Source of the DNA: Kiritimatiellia bacterium | Lineage (GTDB): Bacteria; Verrucomicrobiota; Kiritimatiellia; RFP12; UBA1067 | Assembly: GCA_050949565.1 (NCBI GenBank) | Contig: JBMNFY010000017.1 | Span: 1,152,001 to 1,216,000, forward strand | DNA: 64,000 nt | Direction: 5' to 3' | Program-made: the position numbers and the translations under genes | The notes under the pieces: generated by a model | The model's database searches: none | What the model was told of the DNA's origin: nothing | The model's input: the letters and a program-made list of their open reading frames with translations, nothing else | Shown: positions 54,991 through 64,000 of the stretch, piece by piece | How positions within the stretch are numbered: position 1 is the first letter of the stretch | How the letters are laid out: each line of letters opens with the position of its first letter

Positions 54991-55027
54991 CAAATGGACT
55001 TCAAATTACCTGTCCCTTAAGGCAAAC

Positions 55028-55133
55028 AAAAAAAGCTGTTCTCCTTGTGGACAAATCTAAGGCTCATAATGGCCTATTACCGTAAGACGGTAAAAGCGCA
55101 CTCGCATCTGCGGTGCAAATACAAGGAGAACAG
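55028..55133 (-). ncRNA. candidate structured small RNA (four-way junction plus U-tract)
   Basis: Perfect 13-bp closing stem CTGTTCTCCTTGT/ACAAGGAGAACAG enclosing three hairpins, followed by T7 on minus strand. Confidence 0.45.
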
Positions 55134-55584
55134 TGAAGGGCAGGGGTACAATAAACGGGACGGAGATGAAAGACCAAAAATTTTAAATTTTCGCTCCACT
55201 TAGTCGTTTTACACTGCTATCCCACGAAAAATCTGCGAAATCTGCGCCATCTGCGGATCAAAAAACCGAGCCATGCCAGAAACCAGAGAGCGTTGAGATT
55301 TCAACTGCCGGTTTTAGGCTAAATACCTGTCCCTTTGTCGTCCCTTAGTTGCACAAGATTGGTGCCGGGCTGTGTGGCACGGGCATCTTGCCCGTGTGGC
55401 GGCGTGAAACGCCGCCCGGACGAGCAACGCTCGTCCCTCCCGGCACTCCGCGAGCCGCGCCACTTAGTATGGTCTAAATACCTGTCCCTTAGTCGTCGAT
55501 GCCCGCCTTACGCGGAAAGAGTCGCCAGCGGCGAGTGGTTACGCCCGTGAGCAGACCTTTGCGGCCTTATCCTGACGAAAGCGT

Positions 55585-55613
55585 TTGACAATCGGCCCCT
55601 GCCTAAATATATT
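55585..55613 (+). promoter_or_regulatory. sigma70-type promoter of defence operon
   Basis: TTGACA-17-TATATT upstream of the HTH gene. Confidence 0.65.
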
Positions 55614-55707
55614 AGAGGATGTTTTAAGTTGGGGAAGCTGCGCCCAGCATCCCCGTTACCGCCTCTGGCGTGGCAAGAAAACCAATCGCCCATGAGGAGC
55701 TAGAGAA

Positions 55708-55923
55708 ATGGCCGAGATGGAAGACCGCTGGTTATCAGTAGACGAGATAGGCAAGTACCTCGGTGTCAGTAGTGACACCGTTTACCGCTGGATCGACAAG
55801 CATGCGATGCCCGCCCATCGCATGGGCCGCCTCTGGAAGTTCAAGAAGGATGAGGTGGACGAATGGGTAAAGGCCGGTGGCGCGGCCGAGCCTGCGGAAA
55901 CAGACAAGAAGCGCAAGGAGTAA
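55708..55923 (+). CDS. excisionase-like (HTH_17) DNA-binding protein
   Basis: WLSVDEI..YLGVS.DTVYRWI....MPAHR.GRLWKF. Confidence 0.88.
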   Translation: MAEMEDRWLSVDEIGKYLGVSSDTVYRWIDKHAMPAHRMGRLWKFKKDEVDEWVKAGGAAEPAETDKKRKE

Positions 55924-55932
55924 TAACGGGCT

Positions 55933-58107
55933 ATGAACCATGTGATCCACAACAGCATCGTGAATTTTATCTGGGGTATCGCCGACGACGTGCTGCGCGA
56001 TGTTTATGTGCGCGGCAAGTACCGCGACGTGATCCTGCCGATGACGGTCATCCGCCGTCTCGACGCGCTCTTGGAGCCGAGCAAGGAAAAGGTGCTCGGC
56101 ATGAAGAAGCAGCTCGACGGGGCCGGGATCGCCAACCAGCACGCCGCGCTCTGCCAGGCCGCAGGCGAGGCCTTTTACAACGTCTCGCCCTTTACCCTGC
56201 GCGACCTGAAGAACCGCGCCAAGCAACAACAGCTCAAGGCCGATTTCGAAGCGTATCTGGACGGCTTTTCGCCCAACGTCCAGGAGATCCTCGACAAGTT
56301 CAAGTTCCGCAACCAGATCCCGACCTTGATCGAGGCCGACATCCTCGGCCACCTGATCGAGAAGTTCCTCGACAACCGCGTCAACCTCAGCCCCAAGCCG
56401 GTGCAGGACGTGGACGGCAACGAGCTTCTTCCGGCGCTCGACAACCACTCGATGGGCACCATCTTCGAGGAGCTGATCCGCCGCTTCAACGAGGAGAACA
56501 ACGAAGAGGCCGGAGAGCACTTCACGCCCCGCGACGTGGTCAAGCTCATGGCCGACCTGATCTTCCTGCCGGTGGCCGACGATATCGAGTCGGGCGCCTA
56601 CCTTGTTTACGACGGGGCCTGCGGCACCGGCGGAATGCTGACAGTGGCTGAAGAGCGCTTGGCCGAGCTGGCCGAAAGCCACGGCAAGGATGTCTCCATT
56701 CATCTGTTCGGCCAGGAGGTGCAGCCGGAAACCTACGCCATCTCCAAGGCCGACCTGCTGCTCAAAGGCGAAGGGGCCGAGGCGGAGAACATGAAGTACG
56801 GCTCCACGCTCTCCAGCGATGCCTTCCCGTCGCAGGAATTCGATTTCATGCTCTCCAATCCGCCCTATGGCAAGAGCTGGAAGACCGACCTGGAGCGCCT
56901 GGGCGGCAAGGGCGATATCAAGGACCCGCGCTTTGTCACCCAGCACGGTGGCGACCCGGAATACAAGATGATCACCCGCTCCTCGGACGGGCAGCTCATG
57001 TTCCTGGTCAATAAGCTCTCCAAGATGAAGCACACTACCCGCCTCGGCAGCCGCATCGCCGAGATTCACAACGGCTCGTCGCTCTTCACCGGCGACGCCG
57101 GTCAGGGCGAGAGCAATATCCGCCGCTGGATCATCGAGAACGACTGGCTGGAGGCCATCATCGCCCTGCCGGAGAACATGTTCTACAACACCGGCATCGC
57201 CACCTACATCTGGGTGCTGACCAACCGCAAGTCTGATACGCGCCGGGGCAAGGTCCAGCTCATTGACGCCACCGAATGGTACGTGCCGCTGCGGCGCAAC
57301 CTCGGCAAGAAAAATTGCGAACTCTCCGAAGAGCAGATTCAAACCATTGTCGATCTGGTGGTCAATCCCCGCGAGACCGAGAAATCCAAGATCTTCCCCA
57401 ACGAGGCCTTCGGCTACTGGAAGGTGACGGTGGACCGTCCGCTGCGCCTCGCTGTCGACCTGAGTCCGGCCCGGCTGGAACGGTTCGAGCGGGCCTGCGC
57501 CAAGGCCAAGGAAGAACCGCTGGCCAACCTGGCCCACCGCGTGGCCGAGACGCTTGGAACCGGGCCGCATCTGGATTTCAACGCCTTCATGGACGCCGTT
57601 GAGGCCGATGCCGACAAGCACAGCGTGAAGCTCACCGCCAAGCGCAAGAAGCTGCTGCAGAGCGACCTCTGCGACACCAGCGAGGACGCCGCGCCGGTGC
57701 TGAAGAAGGTTCACAAGCCGGGCAAGACCACGCCAGACCCCATGATTGGGAAGTTTGAAGTGGGAAGTTTGAAATGTGAGCAGGATAAACGTCACCCCTC
57801 ACATCTGTCCCTTCCCCCTTCTTCTGTAGTCGAATACGAGCCAGATACCGCCCTACGCGACAGCGAACAGGTACCGCTGCTGGAAGAGGGCGGCATTGAG
57901 GCATTCTTCCGGCGAGAGGTGCTGCCCTACACCCCAGATGCCTGGATTGATCCGGACAAGACCCAGATTGGCTATGAGATTTCTTTTACCCGGCATTTCT
58001 ACAAACCCGCACCTATGCGTACCCTAAAGGAAATCACGGCCGATATCTACGCGCTGGAGCAGGAGACCGAAGGGCTTCTGGAACAGATTGTCGGGGAGGC
58101 TCAGTGA
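55933..58107 (+). CDS. hsdM: type I R-M methyltransferase subunit
   Basis: GEHFTPRDV, YDGACGTGGML, NPPY motif IV. Confidence 0.96.
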   Translation: MNHVIHNSIVNFIWGIADDVLRDVYVRGKYRDVILPMTVIRRLDALLEPSKEKVLGMKKQLDGAGIANQHAALCQAAGEAFYNVSPFTLRDLKNRAKQQQLKADFEAYLDGFSPNVQEILDKFKFRNQIPTLIEADILGHLIEKFLDNRVNLSPKPVQDVDGNELLPALDNHSMGTIFEELIRRFNEENNEEAGEHFTPRDVVKLMADLIFLPVADDIESGAYLVYDGACGTGGMLTVAEERLAELAESHGKDVSIHLFGQEVQPETYAISKADLLLKGEGAEAENMKYGSTLSSDAFPSQEFDFMLSNPPYGKSWKTDLERLGGKGDIKDPRFVTQHGGDPEYKMITRSSDGQLMFLVNKLSKMKHTTRLGSRIAEIHNGSSLFTGDAGQGESNIRRWIIENDWLEAIIALPENMFYNTGIATYIWVLTNRKSDTRRGKVQLIDATEWYVPLRRNLGKKNCELSEEQIQTIVDLVVNPRETEKSKIFPNEAFGYWKVTVDRPLRLAVDLSPARLERFERACAKAKEEPLANLAHRVAETLGTGPHLDFNAFMDAVEADADKHSVKLTAKRKKLLQSDLCDTSEDAAPVLKKVHKPGKTTPDPMIGKFEVGSLKCEQDKRHPSHLSLPPSSVVEYEPDTALRDSEQVPLLEEGGIEAFFRREVLPYTPDAWIDPDKTQIGYEISFTRHFYKPAPMRTLKEITADIYALEQETEGLLEQIVGEAQ

Positions 58108-59471
58108 TGAAGCTGGCTCCTTATCCAGAATACAAGGATTCTGGTGTTCCGTGGTTAGGGAAGATACCGGCGCACTGGGAACTACATCGTGGAAAATGGC
58201 TTTTTCGCAAAATGGAAAGGCCGGTTCGCTCGCAAGATGAAGTAGTCACATGCTTTCGCGATGGAACAGTTACCTTGCGAAAGAATCGTCGAATCCGGGG
58301 CTTTACCGAATCTCTCAAGGAAATCGGATACCAAGGTATTCGCAAAGGCGATCTGGTTATCCATCAAATGGATGCCTTTGCTGGCGCAGTTGGGGTATCT
58401 GACTCCGATGGGAAGGGGACTCCAGTTTATTCTGTTTGTCTCCCCAAAAGAGATTTAGACACGCATTACTACGCACAACTGGTGCGTGAGATGTCTCGCT
58501 CGTATTTTATAACTTCGCTTGCAAAGGGTATCAGGGAGAGATCAACAGATTTTCGATTCGATACCTTCGCGTCACTAACGCTCCCCGTTCCTTTGCCGGA
58601 AGAGCAAAAGGCAATTTCTCGGTTCATGAGAAATGAATCCGCACAGATCAACAAATTCATCCGCAACAAGCGGCGGCTCATCGAACTGCTCAAGGAGCAG
58701 AAGCAGAACGTCATCAACCAGGCCGTGACCCGGGGGCTTGATCCCAAGGTCAAGTTCAAGCCCAGCGGCGTGGAATGGATCGGAGATATTCCGGAGCATT
58801 GGGAGGTTCGCCGACTCAAGTTCTTGTGCCACAACCTGAATGAACAAACTTCCGAAAAACAGCCAGGCGAGACGTATATAGCTCTTGAACACGTAGAAAG
58901 CTGGACCGGCAGGATTTCACTACCTGATGACGAGATCACCTTTGATAGTCAGGTGAAACGTTTTCAGCCCGGTGATGTTTTGTTCGGAAAGCTACGCCCG
59001 TATCTGGCGAAGGTAACACGGCCACAGACCGCTGGAGTTTGTGTAGGCGAGTTTCTGGTTTTGCGAGCGACCGGAGATGTATCGGCTGATTTCCTTGAAC
59101 AAAAGCTTCGTTCAAAACGCGTAATTGATCTGATTAACAGCTCAACATTTGGGGCAAAAATGCCCCGGGCTGATTGGACATTCATAGGCAATCTGAAGTT
59201 TGCGTATCCACCTGCGGACGAGCAGCGAGAAATTCTTGAGCACATCCAGGAAAAGTCAGCGGAAATCGACCAGGCCATTATCCGTGCCCAACGTGAAATC
59301 GAACTGATGCGCGAGTACCGCACCAGGCTGATTTCCGATGTGGTCACCGGCCAGGTGGATGTGAGAAATGTGAAGTGTGAAGGGGGAAGTTTGAATGAAG
59401 ATGAGTTCGAGGATATTGAAGAGGTAGAGGAAGAAATCGAATTGCCGGAAGGTGGAGAGGATGACGAATAA
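58104..59471 (+). CDS. hsdS: type I R-M specificity subunit
   Basis: YKDSGVPWLGKIP.HW and KPSGVEWIGDIPEHW conserved blocks, two lower-GC TRDs, EYRTRLISDVVTG. Confidence 0.95.
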   Translation: MMKLAPYPEYKDSGVPWLGKIPAHWELHRGKWLFRKMERPVRSQDEVVTCFRDGTVTLRKNRRIRGFTESLKEIGYQGIRKGDLVIHQMDAFAGAVGVSDSDGKGTPVYSVCLPKRDLDTHYYAQLVREMSRSYFITSLAKGIRERSTDFRFDTFASLTLPVPLPEEQKAISRFMRNESAQINKFIRNKRRLIELLKEQKQNVINQAVTRGLDPKVKFKPSGVEWIGDIPEHWEVRRLKFLCHNLNEQTSEKQPGETYIALEHVESWTGRISLPDDEITFDSQVKRFQPGDVLFGKLRPYLAKVTRPQTAGVCVGEFLVLRATGDVSADFLEQKLRSKRVIDLINSSTFGAKMPRADWTFIGNLKFAYPPADEQREILEHIQEKSAEIDQAIIRAQREIELMREYRTRLISDVVTGQVDVRNVKCEGGSLNEDEFEDIEEVEEEIELPEGGEDDE

Positions 59472-59832
59472 ACAGCCTCCTGAAATAACTGCGAGGGCCT
59501 TTGAATTTGCGGTGCGAATCGTAAAGCTGTGTCAACACCTTGACGAGTCCCCAGGCGTAGCGAGGACCCTTGCCAGGCAGCTTATCCGTTCCGGCACATC
59601 GATTGGCGCGAATCTGGAAGAAGGGAAAGGCGCTCAGTCGGAAGCGGATTATCTGACCAAGTGTTCCATAGCGTGCAAGGAAGCCCGGGAAACCCTGTAT
59701 TGGCTAAGGTTGCTTGCCGCGTCGGAAATCCTGACGACAAATCGTCTTTCGGAAATAACAAAAGAATGCGACGAGCTGGTAGCCATTCTCACCAGCATTA
59801 CCAAACGGCTGAAGGAGAAACAGAATGGCTAA
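59461..59832 (+). CDS. four-helix-bundle protein (TIGR02436 / 23S-IVS-protein / Avd-like)
   Basis: RAFEFAVRIVKL...QLIRSGTSIGANLEE......DYL.K..IA.KEA.ET.YWLRLL. Confidence 0.92.
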   Translation: MTNKQPPEITARAFEFAVRIVKLCQHLDESPGVARTLARQLIRSGTSIGANLEEGKGAQSEADYLTKCSIACKEARETLYWLRLLAASEILTTNRLSEITKECDELVAILTSITKRLKEKQNG

Positions 59833-60862
59833 GAATTCTTCACCCCTCACCCCTCACACTTCAAACTTCTACCGAGCCCTTTTGGGCGAGGTAAAAGAGC
59901 GCATCCGCTCCGCCCAGTATGAAGCCCTCAAGGCGGTCAACAAGGAGCTGGTCGGCCTGTACTGGGACATCGGGCGGCTGATCGTGGAGCGGCAGGATGT
60001 TGAAGGCTGGGGCAAGGCGGTGGTGGAACAGCTCGCCGCCGATCTGCGGACGGAGTTTCCCGGCGTGGGTGGCTTTTCGGCCTCCAACCTCTGGCGGATG
60101 AAGGCCTTTTTCGAGGCGTACACCGGCCTGGAAAAACTCGCACCACTGGTGCGAGAAATCGGCTGGAGCCACAACCTGGCTATCCTGGAGCGCTGCAAGG
60201 ACCCGCTGGAGCGGGAATTCTATCTGCGCATGACCCGCAAGTTCGGCTGGTCCAAGAATGTCCTCATTCACCAGATCGACAACCAGAGCTATGAAAAATC
60301 CCTGCTGGGCCAGACCAACTTCGACCAGGCGCTGACGCCGGAACTTCGCGCCCAGGCCAAGCTGGCGGTGAAGGACGAATACACCTTCGATTTTCTGGAA
60401 CTGGGCGAGGAACACAGCGAGCGGGAGCTGGAGCGGGCGCTCATCGCCCGGATCGAGGATTTCCTCCGGGCCATGGGCGGCATGTTCGCCTTCATGGGCA
60501 GCCAATACCGGCTGGAGGTGGACGGCAAAGAGTTTTTCATCGACCTCTTGTTGTTTCACCGCCGTCTGCGCTGCCTTGTCGCCATTGAATTGAAAGTCGG
60601 CGAATTCCTGCCGGAGTTCGTCGGCAAGATGCAGTTTTATCTGGCGGCTCTGGACCGGCAGATCCGCCAGGAGGACGAGAACCCCTCCATCGGTATCATC
60701 CTGTGCAAGGAGAAGAGCCGCACGATTGTGGAATACGCCCTGCACGACGCCCGCAAGCCCATCGGCGTGGCCACTTATGAAATCACCAAGACCCTGCCCA
60801 AGGCGCTGAAAGGCCAACTGCCGTCACCGAAGGACATCGCCCATTTGCTGGAGGACCTATGA
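59825..60862 (+). CDS. YhcG-like DUF1016 PD-(D/E)XK nuclease domain protein
   Basis: LYWDIGRLI, GWG...V..LA.DL, GFS..NL..M..F, WSHN, KDEYTFDFL, IDLLLFHR.L...AIELK. Confidence 0.92.
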   Translation: MAKNSSPLTPHTSNFYRALLGEVKERIRSAQYEALKAVNKELVGLYWDIGRLIVERQDVEGWGKAVVEQLAADLRTEFPGVGGFSASNLWRMKAFFEAYTGLEKLAPLVREIGWSHNLAILERCKDPLEREFYLRMTRKFGWSKNVLIHQIDNQSYEKSLLGQTNFDQALTPELRAQAKLAVKDEYTFDFLELGEEHSERELERALIARIEDFLRAMGGMFAFMGSQYRLEVDGKEFFIDLLLFHRRLRCLVAIELKVGEFLPEFVGKMQFYLAALDRQIRQEDENPSIGIILCKEKSRTIVEYALHDARKPIGVATYEITKTLPKALKGQLPSPKDIAHLLEDL

Positions 60863-63800
60863 AACCGACCGACACCAGCGAAAAGGGCCTGGAGTCCATC
60901 ATCGTCGCGTCCCTCGTGGAGGAGGCCGGATACGTTCAGGGTGATCCGCAGGACTACGACCGGGAACACGCTGTCGACCTGGCCAAGCTGCTGCAATTCC
61001 TCTCCGCCACCCAGCCCGAGACCTATGAGGCTCTTGGCATCGGCGAGGAAGACGGCTCTTCCAATCCTCGGCGCACCCAGTTTCTGCAGCGCCTGCAGGG
61101 CGAGATCGCCAAGCGCGGCGTGGTAGACGTGCTGCGCGGCGGCATCAAGCACGGCCCGGCCCATGTGGACCTTTTCTACGGCACGCCGACGCCGGGCAAC
61201 GTGAAGGCGGCCGAACGGTTCGCGGCCAACATCTTCAGCGTCACCCGCCAACTTCGCTACAGCCGCAACGAGACCGCGCTCTCCCTCGACATGGCCGTAT
61301 TCATCAACGGCCTGCCCATCGCCACCTTCGAACTCAAAAATAAGCTCACCAAGCAGACGGTGCTCGATGCCGTGCAGCAGTACCAGCGCGACCGCGACCC
61401 GAAGGAGCTGCTGTTCCAGTTCGGCCGTTGCGTCGTTCATTTTGCCGTGGACGATCACGAGGTGCGTTTTTGCACCCACCTCAAGGGCAAGGGCTCGTGG
61501 TTTCTGCCCTTCAACAAGGGCTACAACGACGGCGCGGGCAATCCGCCCAACCCTGATGGGCTCGCCACCGACTACCTGTGGAAGGAGACCCTCTCCAAAG
61601 AGGGGTTGACCGATATCCTGGAAAACTACGCCCAGGTGGTGGAGGAAAAGGACGAGAAGACCGGCAAAAAGCGATACAAGCAGATCTTCCCCCGTTACCA
61701 CCAGTTGAAGGTGGTGCGCATGCTGCTGGCCAATGCCGCCGAGAGCGGCATCGGCAGGCGCTACCTGATCCAGCACTCGGCGGGCAGCGGCAAAAGTAAC
61801 TCCATCGCCTGGCTGGCGCACCAGCTCGTGGGGCTGGAACACGAGAGCAAGGCGTTGTTCGACTCGGTCATTGTGGTCACCGACCGGCGGGTGCTCGACA
61901 AACAGATCCGCGACACCATCAAGCAGTTCGCCCAGGTTTCCGCCACCGTCGGCCATGCCGAGCATTCCGGCGACCTGCGCCGCTTCCTCAAGGCCGGTAA
62001 GAAAATTATCATCACCACGGTGCAGAAGTTCCCGTTCATCCTCGATGAGATCGGCGACGAACACCGTAAGAGCAAGTTCGCCATCATCATCGACGAGGCC
62101 CATTCCAGCCAGGGCGGCAAGACCACTGCCGCGATGAATCGTGTGCTGGAAGAGACCGCGCCCTACGGCGGCTCTGATGACGAGGGGGAAGAGACGGTCG
62201 AGGACAAGATCAATAAGATCATGGAAGGCCGGAAGATGGTGACCAACGCCAGCTACTTCGCTTTCACCGCGACTCCCAAGAACAAGACCCTGGAGATCTT
62301 CGGCGAGCCGGACCCGCAGCCCGACGGAACCGTGAAGCACCACCCGTTCCACAGCTACACGATGAAACAGGCCATCCAGGAGGGCTTCATCCTCGATGTG
62401 CTGAAGAACTACACCCCGGTGGAGAGCTATTACCGCCTGGCCAAGACCGTGGAGGACGACCCGCTCTTCGACGCCAACAAGGCACAGAAAAAGCTGCGCC
62501 GCTATGTGGAGTCCCATGAGCACGCCATCCGCGAGAAGGCGGAGATCATGGTGGACCACTTCCACGCCCAGGTGATCGGCCACCGCAAGATCGGCGGCCA
62601 TGCCCGGGCCATGGTCATCACCAACGGTATCGAGCGGGCCATTCAGTATTTCCACGCCTTCAAGGACTACCTCAAGGAGCGCAAAAGCCCTTACGAGCCC
62701 ATCGTGGCTTTTTCCGGAGAGCATGAGTACGGCGGCAAAAAGGTCACCGAAGCGACCCTGAACGGCTTCCCCAGCAGTCAGATCCCGGACAAGGTTCAGC
62801 AGGACCCGTACCGCTTCCTGATCGTCGCCGACAAGTTCCAGACCGGCTACGACGAACCGCTGCTGCACACCATGTACGTGGACAAGGCGCTCTCCGGCAT
62901 CAAGGCGGTGCAGACCCTCTCGCGCCTCAATCGCGCCCACCCGCAGAAGCACGACACCTTTGTACTCGATTTCTACAACGACTCGGAGACCATCCAGAAG
63001 TCGTTCGAGCCCTATTACCGGACCACCATCCTCAGTGACGAGACCGACCCCAACAAGCTCCATGATCTGAAGTCGGATCTGGACGGCTACCAGGTCTATT
63101 CGCAGGCGCAAATCGACGATCTGGTGGGGCTTTACCTGAACGGCGCGGACCGCGACAAGCTCGACCCGATCCTGGATGCCTGCGTGGCCACCTACAACGC
63201 CGATCTTGATGAGGACGGCCAGGTGGACTTCAAAGGCAAGGCCAAGGCCTTCGTGCGCACCTACGGCTTTCTGTCCTCGATTCTGGCGTACTCGAGTGCC
63301 GACTGGGAAAAGCTGTCGATCTTCCTGAACTTCCTGATTCCGAAGCTTCCCGCGCCCAAGGAAGAGGACCTGTCCCGGGGCATCCTGGAGGCCATCGACA
63401 TGGACAGCTACCGTGTCGAGGTGAAAACCAGCCTGAAGATCGGCCTTCCAGATCAGGATGCCGAAATCGGACCGGTGCCGACCAGCGGCGGTGGCCGCAA
63501 ACCGGAACCGGAGTTGGACCAACTGAGCAATATCATCAAGGCGTTCAACGACCAGTTCGGCAACATCGATTGGAAGGACGGCGACAAGATCCGCAAGGTC
63601 ATCGCTGAGGAGATCCCGGCCAAGGTCGCGGCGGACGCGGCCTACCAGAACGCCATGAAGAACAACGATAAGAAGACCGCCCGGATCGAACACGACGCCG
63701 CGCTGCAGCGCGTCATGATCGACCTCTTGTCCGACCACACCGAGCTGTTCAAGCAGTTCAGCGACAACCCGTCGTTCAAGAAATGGCTGGGCGACACCAT

Positions 63801-63864
63801 CTTCGGCGTGACTTATCAGCAACAGGCCGAACAATCCGCAACGGGGGCGAGCCATGGACGTTAA
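60859..63864 (+). CDS. hsdR: type I R-M restriction subunit
   Basis: NGLPIATFELKN nuclease, QHSAGSGKS, DEAH, FTATP, KFQTGYDEP. Confidence 0.96.
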   Translation: MKPTDTSEKGLESIIVASLVEEAGYVQGDPQDYDREHAVDLAKLLQFLSATQPETYEALGIGEEDGSSNPRRTQFLQRLQGEIAKRGVVDVLRGGIKHGPAHVDLFYGTPTPGNVKAAERFAANIFSVTRQLRYSRNETALSLDMAVFINGLPIATFELKNKLTKQTVLDAVQQYQRDRDPKELLFQFGRCVVHFAVDDHEVRFCTHLKGKGSWFLPFNKGYNDGAGNPPNPDGLATDYLWKETLSKEGLTDILENYAQVVEEKDEKTGKKRYKQIFPRYHQLKVVRMLLANAAESGIGRRYLIQHSAGSGKSNSIAWLAHQLVGLEHESKALFDSVIVVTDRRVLDKQIRDTIKQFAQVSATVGHAEHSGDLRRFLKAGKKIIITTVQKFPFILDEIGDEHRKSKFAIIIDEAHSSQGGKTTAAMNRVLEETAPYGGSDDEGEETVEDKINKIMEGRKMVTNASYFAFTATPKNKTLEIFGEPDPQPDGTVKHHPFHSYTMKQAIQEGFILDVLKNYTPVESYYRLAKTVEDDPLFDANKAQKKLRRYVESHEHAIREKAEIMVDHFHAQVIGHRKIGGHARAMVITNGIERAIQYFHAFKDYLKERKSPYEPIVAFSGEHEYGGKKVTEATLNGFPSSQIPDKVQQDPYRFLIVADKFQTGYDEPLLHTMYVDKALSGIKAVQTLSRLNRAHPQKHDTFVLDFYNDSETIQKSFEPYYRTTILSDETDPNKLHDLKSDLDGYQVYSQAQIDDLVGLYLNGADRDKLDPILDACVATYNADLDEDGQVDFKGKAKAFVRTYGFLSSILAYSSADWEKLSIFLNFLIPKLPAPKEEDLSRGILEAIDMDSYRVEVKTSLKIGLPDQDAEIGPVPTSGGGRKPEPELDQLSNIIKAFNDQFGNIDWKDGDKIRKVIAEEIPAKVAADAAYQNAMKNNDKKTARIEHDAALQRVMIDLLSDHTELFKQFSDNPSFKKWLGDTIFGVTYQQQAEQSATGASHGR

Positions 63865-64000
63865 AACGGCCGCAATTCAGGTTTTGCAACAGGCCGGAAC
63901 GGCGCTGCACGCCAAGGATATCGCCGAGCAGATCATGGCTGCCGGTCTCTGGCAGTCCGGAGGTAAGACCCCAGAGGCCACCGTCAGCGCCCGGCTCTAC
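63854..64000 (+). CDS. HARE-HTH domain protein (possibly Mrr-type restriction protein), 3'-truncated by window
   Basis: MDVKTAAIQVLQQAGTALHAKDIAEQIMAAGLWQSGGKTPEATVSARLY matches the HARE-HTH pattern. Confidence 0.75.
   Translation, partial: MDVKTAAIQVLQQAGTALHAKDIAEQIMAAGLWQSGGKTPEATVSARLY

Follow-up and report, generated by a model that had tools for sequence, protein, structure and literature searches.

The last 8 kb of the 64,000-nucleotide (nt) stretch of Kiritimatiellia bacterium contig JBMNFY010000017.1 analysed here (the window, whose positions serve as coordinates throughout) is filled by a type I restriction-modification operon on the + strand, as are all window features described below; the operon was recognized from open reading frames (ORFs), Pfam and PADLOC. 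At the junction of hsdS and yhcG lies a small gene for a four-helix-bundle protein, enclosed by inverted arrays of tandem heptamers, and we refer to these arms and the gene together as the cassette. The gene (59461-59832; ATG at 59461, stop at 59830-59832) encodes 123 amino acids that match the PF05635 profile above its curated cut-off (82.4 bits against 33.8, 3e-23) and TIGR02436 (103 bits against 24, 9e-30), and residues 10-118 match the solved chain 2RLD_A (6e-22) of the five-chain PDB entry 2RLD. It overlaps by 11 nt the specificity subunit gene hsdS (58104-59471; ORF, Pfam Methylase_S, PADLOC Specificity_I) and by 8 nt yhcG (59825-60862; Pfam YhcG_C/DUF1016_N, PADLOC candidate PDC-S02), which encodes a DUF1016 / PD-(D/E)xK nuclease and is followed by the restriction subunit gene hsdR (60859-63864; Pfam, PADLOC REase_I). 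An AAGGAG Shine-Dalgarno sequence for yhcG (59812-59817) lies within the final codons of the four-helix-bundle gene and precedes the yhcG ATG at 59825 by 7 nt, and a local hairpin (59780-59831; 10-nt strands 59780-59789 / 59822-59831, 100% complementary) covers this ATG and the four-helix-bundle stop codon.

The left arm (59361-59400) is a purine-rich series, AAATGTG AAGTGTG AAGGGGG AAGTTTG, read by the hsdS frame as NVKCEGGSL, and the right arm (59838-59869) is pyrimidine-rich, CACCCCT CACCCCT CACACTT CAAACTT, read by the yhcG frame as SSPLTPHTSNF (YhcG residues ~5-15). Sequence, ORFs and a 32-nt inverted repeat (59364-59395 / 59839-59870; 78% complementary, 443 nt apart) confirm a first-pass annotation of this DNA that had placed the arms in these two frames and the gene across both neighbours. 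Self-identity within the left arm is 0.63 at a lag of 7 nt and 0.24 at a lag of 3 nt. The arms enclose the gene as annotated, with one correction: the left arm does not adjoin it. A 60-nt coding-type spacer (59401-59460) intervenes, with self-identities of 0.35, 0.42 and 0.45 at lags of 3, 6 and 9 nt compared with 0.26 at 7 nt, and the consensus fold pairs parts of this spacer with 59836-59848. The spacer codes for an acidic HsdS tail, and comparison with orthologue tails resolves the C-terminal 34 residues of HsdS into the arm-coded NVKCEGGSL followed by this tail. Given the overlapping stops and starts and a Shine-Dalgarno sequence and ATG inside the cassette, the arms are translated as the beginning of the acidic HsdS tail and as the YhcG leader peptide. 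The flanking inverted-repeat score of the cassette is 19, a value matched by 1 of 300 random 315-nt genome intervals under both scoring schemes and the same geometry, and a regular expression for at least 3 tandem GA[AG]KKKK units finds 4 sites in the 4.66-Mb genome, 3 of them in the restriction-modification operon (both arms and a patch in hsdM).

The minimum-free-energy RNA fold of 59340-59890 pairs the arms, but with a z-score of only -1.81, and 3 of 100 shuffles fold equally well. Consensus folds of two and of five sequences also pair the arms. The predicted stem (59355-59432 / 59836-59872) comprises 33 pairs, all retained in the filled relative L092 described below, where two are compensated; pair 67/502 (consensus-fold numbering) is compensated from GC to AU in both L199 and L092. 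In the five-sequence fold the shorter L198 arm is misaligned, and the local hairpin over the yhcG ATG is retained with one compensatory and several wobble changes. Logan contigs from the RNA libraries of four studies carry arms and gene in one piece (X15, 59334-59967; X19, 59286-59981; X17, 59278-59840; X16, 59418-59926), the contig ends and uncovered bins being uninformative on RNA ends.

Empty and filled alleles of the hsdS-yhcG junction

The best 80 of 471 YhcG relatives fetched were probed with HsdM, HsdS, HsdR and the four-helix-bundle protein. Seven orthologous hsdS-yhcG-hsdR operons (L016-L021 and L026; HsdR N-termini 87.5-94.5% identical), from Desulfofustis, Fastidiosipila, Pseudomonadales, Lentisphaerae and other metagenome-assembled genomes (MAGs), contain neither the gene nor the arms. 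A single locus among these 80 is filled: L092, from a Lentisphaeria MAG and apparently the same locus as L097, encodes a protein 82% identical to that of the window between the same arms in the same place. No other YhcG locus contains the arm 11-mers, except for an isolated match in L042, downstream of its yhcG match. The first-pass annotation had predicted that arms and gene are gained and lost together, with no gene-less homologous locus keeping the arms, and this is what the alleles display: the seven empty operons lack both, filled relatives keep the arms even with a different downstream partner, and arms and gene behave as a single unit, present or absent together.

Between GATGTG (59355-59360) and CTACC (59869-59873), the seven empty operons have about 150 nt and the window 508 nt. 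The empty-site sequence encodes a 36-residue acidic HsdS tail (34 residues in the window) whose stop overlaps the yhcG ATG, and then a 17-residue YhcG leader, MKPTDKTPKNSLGKPQD. Homology between the window and the empty sites restarts at 59869, and most YhcG relatives align from residue 16 onward only. Filled and empty sites are related by replacement of about 150 nt with 508 nt rather than by simple insertion, which departs from the pattern of a cut-and-paste transposon or miniature inverted-repeat transposable element, and their comparison reveals no target-site duplication at 59360|59361 or 59868|59869. The spacer and the first four-helix-bundle codons may descend from the ancestral hsdS tail and yhcG start: the two tails are of matching length, and short strings recur in the L026 yhcG start, although the region is of low complexity. 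A shared 'KNS' is written in different codons and is probably a chance match.

Sequence divergence between the two filled alleles separates the parts of the cassette. In the four-helix-bundle gene, codon positions 1, 2 and 3 are 85, 92 and 38% identical between the window and L092, a pattern of purifying selection on the protein. Over the same distance the left arm retains 37 of 40 bases and the right arm 30 of 32 (67/72 combined), compared with 40 of 60 in the spacer and 71% of third codon positions in yhcG. The arms are conserved well above synonymous sites and, with third positions of the gene at 38%, both arms and protein are under selection; because the arm-encoded peptides are missing from the cassette-less orthologues, the constraint acts on nucleic acid. 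This selection on the arms is the strongest new result at the locus. Elsewhere, 69 pairs of related cassettes were compared, and in about 41 of the 47 with unrelated flanks and saturated third positions (tallied by eye) the arms are more similar than third positions. Since purine-rich low complexity inflates arm identity in such pairs, we place weight only on the clear cases and on the window/L092 comparison. Examples of related cassettes that keep similar arms while their flanks are unrelated are L104/L107 (86% identity in the arms, 40% in the flanks) and L111/L113 (77% and 39%).

The alleles also record other rearrangements of the operon. At L092:5156-5520, an hsdM with an in-frame stop is joined by a large deletion to the last hsdS codons, leaving arms, four-helix-bundle gene and yhcG intact. 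In the empty operons L016-L021, YhcG starts with MKPTD, the first five residues of HsdR (MKPTDTSEKG; window hsdR start at 60859), and this common start suggests that yhcG itself arrived at the hsdS|hsdR junction through capture or duplication of the beginning of hsdR. The 59870-60862 part of YhcG is 95-98% identical at the protein level to its counterparts in L016-L020, from MAGs and isolates labelled Desulfofustis, Fastidiosipila, Thermodesulfobacteriota and Pseudomonadales; this part of the operon has moved between phyla recently.

Right-arm fusions, gene-less hairpins and the wider family

A metagenome scan with the four-helix-bundle protein yielded 68 loci, and we examined 12 of the 13 closest (L191-L196 and L198-L203; 72-100% identity), leaving out L197, whose match starts at base 2; L204-L208 lie in other contexts. 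Heptamer arms are present in all 12, and the upstream flanks read as an HsdS tail, a match confirmed by tblastn in all six loci tested (L198-L203). In these six, the gene always ends KRLKEK(R/Q)xG/A* and its stop overlaps the ATG with which the right arm begins. The sequence downstream of this ATG varies: the right arm is fused in frame to yhcG in the window, L092 and L199, is fused in frame to hsdR in L202 (MPDNPSSFTPRPSHFT|DTSEKGLE, compared with MKPT|DTSEKGLE in the window), and opens a mini-ORF of 15-53 codons in L198, L200, L201 and L203. L200 and L202 have a further right-arm array, which encodes the N-terminus of the four-helix-bundle protein itself. The proposed ability to insert without breaking frames is thus borne out at several independent junctions, and because a conserved stop/ATG overlap precedes such varied partners, the cassette provides a Shine-Dalgarno sequence, a start codon and a repeat-coded leader to whatever gene follows. 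The proteins nearest that of the window in the wider survey (57-68% identity) are accompanied by related units: GAAGTGA, GAAGTTA and GAATTGA.

Arm-like sequences also occur without the gene. The operon begins with a helix-turn-helix gene (55708-55923; ORF and Pfam) and the type I methyltransferase gene hsdM (55933-58107; Pfam N6_Mtase and HsdM_N, PADLOC MTase_I), and hsdM contains, in frame, a gene-less hairpin of the heptamer family (57744-57828; motif match 57750-57773). The region measures 78 nt in the window (encoding GKFEVGSLKCEQDKRHPSHLSLPPSS) and 36 nt in orthologues (GLFEAEVGGKHC), has GGGAAGTTTGAA and TCACCCCTCACA in common with the arms of the cassette, and folds at -27.5 kcal/mol (z -2.6) in the sense and -30.4 kcal/mol (z -3.0) in the antisense orientation; RNA-library contigs from other strains diverge exactly at 57743. 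In L202, hsdR carries an in-frame hairpin of GAAGTGT GAAGGGT GAAGAGA GAAGTGT, a loop and the complement (-32.7 kcal/mol), and a further arm-like array lies just upstream of the hsdS start. Together with the restriction of the heptamer unit mostly to this operon, these hairpins in hsdM and hsdR indicate that the cassette arms give rise to local, in-frame, gene-less copies.

Genome-wide, Tandem Repeats Finder (period 7 or 8, score >=40, at least 3.5 copies) reports 454 arrays. The genome holds nine PF05635 genes above cut-off, each with a unit of its own, and three of these cassettes share their units with 241 of the 454 arrays (110, 67 and 58), each of the four most frequent units being a cassette unit; each of the other six cassettes, that of the window included, has at most 2 arrays of its own unit. 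Solo arrays are intergenic, with 81 between convergent and 38 between divergent genes. Only 3 inverted pairs of same-unit arrays emerge from a strict search, which probably overlooks pairs with a single-base difference between their consensus units. We considered and rejected a correspondence of one heptamer per pentamer subunit: array copy numbers fall monotonically (201, 146, 65, 12...) with no peak at 5. Three further structures stand out. At G000:C20:28654-30054, about 14 copies of a 105-nt unit (AGAACGC x5.6, TGGGGAA x2, AACGCTC x2.3) belong to the family of the C8:62242 cassette. At C17:395464-395772 (L006), the AGTTAGG left arm harbours an entire hairpin from a different unit family (TTCAGCG... 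/ AACGCTC...). At C20:20445-21012 (L001), the gene has a complete hairpin on each side (TAGTGGC array, AAACAAACTAA loop, CCACTCG array) rather than one arm per side.

The packaging seen in the window is widespread. All nine resident PF05635 genes have inverted arms of tandem 7-8-nt units and are co-oriented with both neighbours, in contexts comprising the type I restriction-modification operon, helicase/PglZ, DUF6079, MoxR/DUF58, VWA, two glycosyltransferase junctions, PilM-like and radical SAM. We extended this set with loci from 401 same-phylum genomes (29 loci), two other genomes (2 loci), 101 genomes of cyanobacteria (30 loci) and 151 of Pseudomonadota (27 of 30 loci), omitting L185 and L187 (contig ends), L190 (not tabulated), L128-L130 (partial) and L010-L015 (below cut-off). 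Of the 97 loci tabulated, 93 had usable flanks and were compared with 300 random intervals. A flanking inverted-repeat score of at least 13 was reached by 85/93 loci and 29/300 intervals, of at least 15 by 78/93 and 5/300, and of at least 19 by 62/93 and 1/300, which upholds the expectation that four-helix-bundle genes are enriched for inverted heptamers. By group, scores of at least 13 were found in 9/9 loci of the genome itself, 24/28 of its phylum, 2/2 of the two other genomes, 28/29 of the cyanobacteria and 22/25 of the Pseudomonadota. Of the 85 armed loci, 67 have a 7-nt period, 12 an 8-nt period and 6 a period of another length; 65 have a purine-rich upstream arm and 5 a pyrimidine-rich one. 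Distances were measured at the 68 loci that score at least 15 and have both an intact gene and flanks of 300 nt: the median gap is 19.5 nt between left arm and start codon and 8.5 nt between stop codon and right arm. The left arm falls within a long upstream ORF in 9 of these 68, the right arm within a long downstream ORF in 7, and both in 3: the window, L171 and C17:1741916-1742230 of the same genome, where ATGA overlaps occur at both ends. Translated arms are a minority arrangement, not unique to the window.

Known systems and competing explanations

Integron gene cassettes consist of a promoter-less ORF and a hairpin-forming attC site. The window cassette resembles them as a small promoter-less ORF, co-oriented with host transcription and bounded by foldable imperfect inverted repeats, and differs in having two arms rather than one attC, tandem repeats with a private unit and no integrase nearby. 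The closest described system is the ORF-bearing intervening sequence (IVS) of 23S rRNA. In Coxiella burnetii, the IVS in helix 45 has a 28-bp terminal stem with two to three tandem GACAGAT heptamers before the start of its protein gene, S23p; RNase III cuts within the stem; and the element was horizontally acquired, with S23p decaying and apparently not made (PMC4990558). The window cassette shares with that element (PMC4990558) a PF05635-family ORF in the loop of a stem, here a predicted one, tandem heptamers, probable transcription as part of a host transcript and horizontal acquisition, and the likeness to an IVS put forward in the first-pass annotation gains support from that stem, its heptamers and its RNase III cuts. 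Unlike the Coxiella element (PMC4990558), the window cassette lies in a protein-coding operon, its arms are translated and its protein is under strong purifying selection. Its terminal inverted repeats have the 78% complementarity and the folding potential for an ORF-enclosing stem, as in an IVS, and its location is not helix 25 or 45 of 23S rRNA; it lies between hsdS and yhcG, and no Rfam family matched within 55000-64000.

PF05635 is elsewhere equated with Avd-like proteins, with reference to a pentameric Xcc0516 structure (PMC10053308). The window protein shares a four-helix-bundle superfamily with Avd of diversity-generating retroelements (DGRs), which acts on structured RNA next to its own gene (PMC10053308). 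The operon itself does not have the composition of a DGR, in which a reverse transcriptase and template/variable repeats accompany the Avd-like gene: the six operon ORFs scanned contain no reverse-transcriptase domain (the rest of the genome was not searched), and 59200-60000 contains no long direct repeat pair and no template/variable repeat pair that we could see. Heptamer arrays of the unit TAACTGA, with no known function, are described from Beggiatoaceae, cyanobacteria and Bacteroidetes (PMC4679880); they resemble the 454 arrays here in having 2-6 copies of a 7-nt unit, mostly intergenic positions and a patchy phylogeny, and differ in that only one inverted set occurs among 170, compared with inverted pairs around a gene here. 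The same paper names neither S23, four helix nor intervening sequences (PMC4679880). Our literature search found no publication that describes PF05635 genes outside rRNA as flanked by inverted arrays of heptamers, and 'four helix bundle' combined with 'heptamer repeats' returned none.

The window has the full set of traits of the surveyed class, a PF05635 gene with mutually complementary tandem 7-8-nt arrays on both sides, the purine-rich arm upstream and co-orientation with its neighbours, and is a well-resolved member of this widespread class of cassettes, a variant of the rRNA IVS. With a probability of roughly 0.6, we read it as an IVS-type cassette, in which a promoter-less PF05635/TIGR02436 gene between complementary 7-nt arrays occupies the translationally coupled hsdS|yhcG junction, the arms pair in the transcript and the protein binds the arrays. 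The cassette would be transcribed along with the operon and its arms would pair (~33 bp, interrupted), looping out the gene as in the Coxiella 23S rRNA IVS. By analogy with the heptamer-bearing Coxiella stem, RNase III, whose gene is present in the host genome, may cut the arm stem, or the stem and the yhcG-ATG hairpin may be opened by ribosomes as these complete hsdS and the cassette gene, which would keep downstream translation coupled. The protein, a predicted Avd-like oligomer, would most likely bind its own heptamer arrays, because the arm sequence is conserved, the units are private and hairpin offspring are local; the arrays would spread locally as gene-less hairpins, as in hsdM of the window and hsdR of L202.

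Several observations weigh against this IVS-type reading. The contigs from four RNA-library runs (contigs, not reads) bridge the arms and offer no joint skipping the cassette and no sign of excision, and a hairpin of the same family lies in the hsdM coding region, where obligatory cleavage of such stems would cut the hsdM mRNA. At least two compensated changes among 33 stem pairs, as seen in two sequences, are also reached by 119 of 500 shuffles, and the covariation test covers just two to five close sequences. On the sense strand, G.U and A.C arm mismatches number 19 and 50 in the genome and its phylum, 58 and 25 in cyanobacteria and 24 and 28 in Pseudomonadota; with 102 against 105 over all loci and opposite biases between phyla, there is no signature of a sense-RNA stem, and given this inconsistency we draw no conclusion from the strand test. 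Both arms lie here within translated ORFs, so that ribosomes would compete with stem formation. The arm sequence is conserved, not pairing alone, and a binding site accounts for this as well as a stem does. Solo arrays of other cassettes have no orientation bias relative to genes (39 versus 41), and the Coxiella case, where S23p is seemingly not made, is silent on the role of the protein.

A rival account, possible although somewhat doubtful, works at the level of DNA. In it, the arms are hairpin-forming ends recognized as single-stranded or cruciform DNA, a host factor or the four-helix-bundle protein itself mobilizes them, their non-autonomous derivatives are the gene-less hairpins and arrays, and any RNA stem is a by-product. 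Gene-less hairpins of the cassette unit family in the same operon of two lineages (hsdM in the window; hsdR and the array upstream of hsdS in L202) speak for it, as do the dominance of three resident cassettes' units among the 454 arrays, the intergenic, orientation-neutral and preferentially convergent placement of solo arrays, the hairpin of another family nested in the C17:395464 left arm, the similar arms with unrelated flanks in L104/L107 and L111/L113, and the conservation of arm sequence beyond pairing. The same account must cope with a protein in which Pfam, TIGR02436 and PADLOC scans find no recognizable transposase, integrase or HUH domain, with a target at which sequence was replaced without duplication and not merely interrupted, with private units that a single shared transposase could not all recognize, and with six of nine resident cassettes that have next to no arrays of their own unit. 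A broader conjecture, which we consider unlikely, would make PF05635 proteins the missing partner of bacterial heptamer repeats: each cassette would be an autonomous element, of a new kind without a recognizable transposase, whose protein recognizes a private 7-nt unit and seeds arrays and hairpins of it, at first nearby and even in frame within adjacent genes, the rRNA IVS being one special landing site.

Translation itself offers another explanation, in which a long-range RNA stem hides the downstream start until the upstream ORF has been translated, sparing operon stoichiometry with no need for cleavage or mobility. The geometry of the window suits it, with the 3′ strand of the predicted stem spanning +12 to +48 of yhcG, the left arm inside hsdS, a conserved local hairpin covering the yhcG start codon, overlapping stop and start codons at either end and the yhcG Shine-Dalgarno sequence inside the cassette gene; co-orientation with the neighbours in nine of nine resident cassettes fits as well, and in the empty sites, too, the hsdS stop overlaps the yhcG ATG. 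Yet arms are mostly intergenic across the family, being in long ORFs in few of the 68 loci, and tandem heptamers, private units and gene-less hairpins are left unexplained; we regard this account as distinctly unlikely. We regard it as very improbable that the four-helix-bundle protein is a functional accessory of the restriction-modification/YhcG defence operon, as Avd is in DGRs, with the arms incidental. The gene does lie in a defence operon and has been maintained there by purifying selection across lineages, and two more of the nine cassettes adjoin PglZ and DUF6079 genes; however, the gene is dispensed with in the seven orthologous operons, MoxR/DUF58/VWA, glycosyltransferase, PilM-like or radical-SAM contexts surround six of the nine cassettes, and the protein fits no PADLOC model.

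Two old puzzles meet at the locus, the role of the widespread 'four helix bundle / 23S rRNA IVS protein' family and the origin of the heptamer repeats of many bacterial genomes. It is a good place to test the link between them, since near-identical operons exist with and without the cassette, both the arms and the protein are under selection, and gene-less hairpins lie in hsdM and hsdR. What is new at the locus are these alleles, the arm selection, the portable start-plus-leader module and the in-frame hairpin derivatives. The locus shows how an inserted gene can supply the ribosome-binding site, start codon and leader peptide of the next gene while a coupled operon keeps running, which may help to explain the tolerance of defence operons for hitch-hikers. 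It also matters for annotation that unusual tails and leaders on HsdS, YhcG and HsdR are repeat-coded.

Two observations concern the boundaries of the family. L010:1123-2001 (- strand) and five other sub-cut-off PF05635 matches (L011-L015) are ORFs of ~290-340 amino acids with a partial match to profile positions 1-73, and are probably longer four-helix-bundle relatives rather than cassettes; the gene adjoining the L010 ORF is presumably a DUF45/M48-type hydrolase. In a Spirochaetaceae MAG (L051:6990-7322), a different small ORF, which we take to be a 'GxxExxY'-type fragment, lies between yhcG and hsdR inside inverted CACGAAAA-type arrays (CACGAAAAACACGAAAAGCACGAAAAA ... TTTCGTGTTTTTCGTGTCTTTCGCG), and with such an ORF inside inverted arrays, repeat-arm packaging may extend beyond the four-helix-bundle family.

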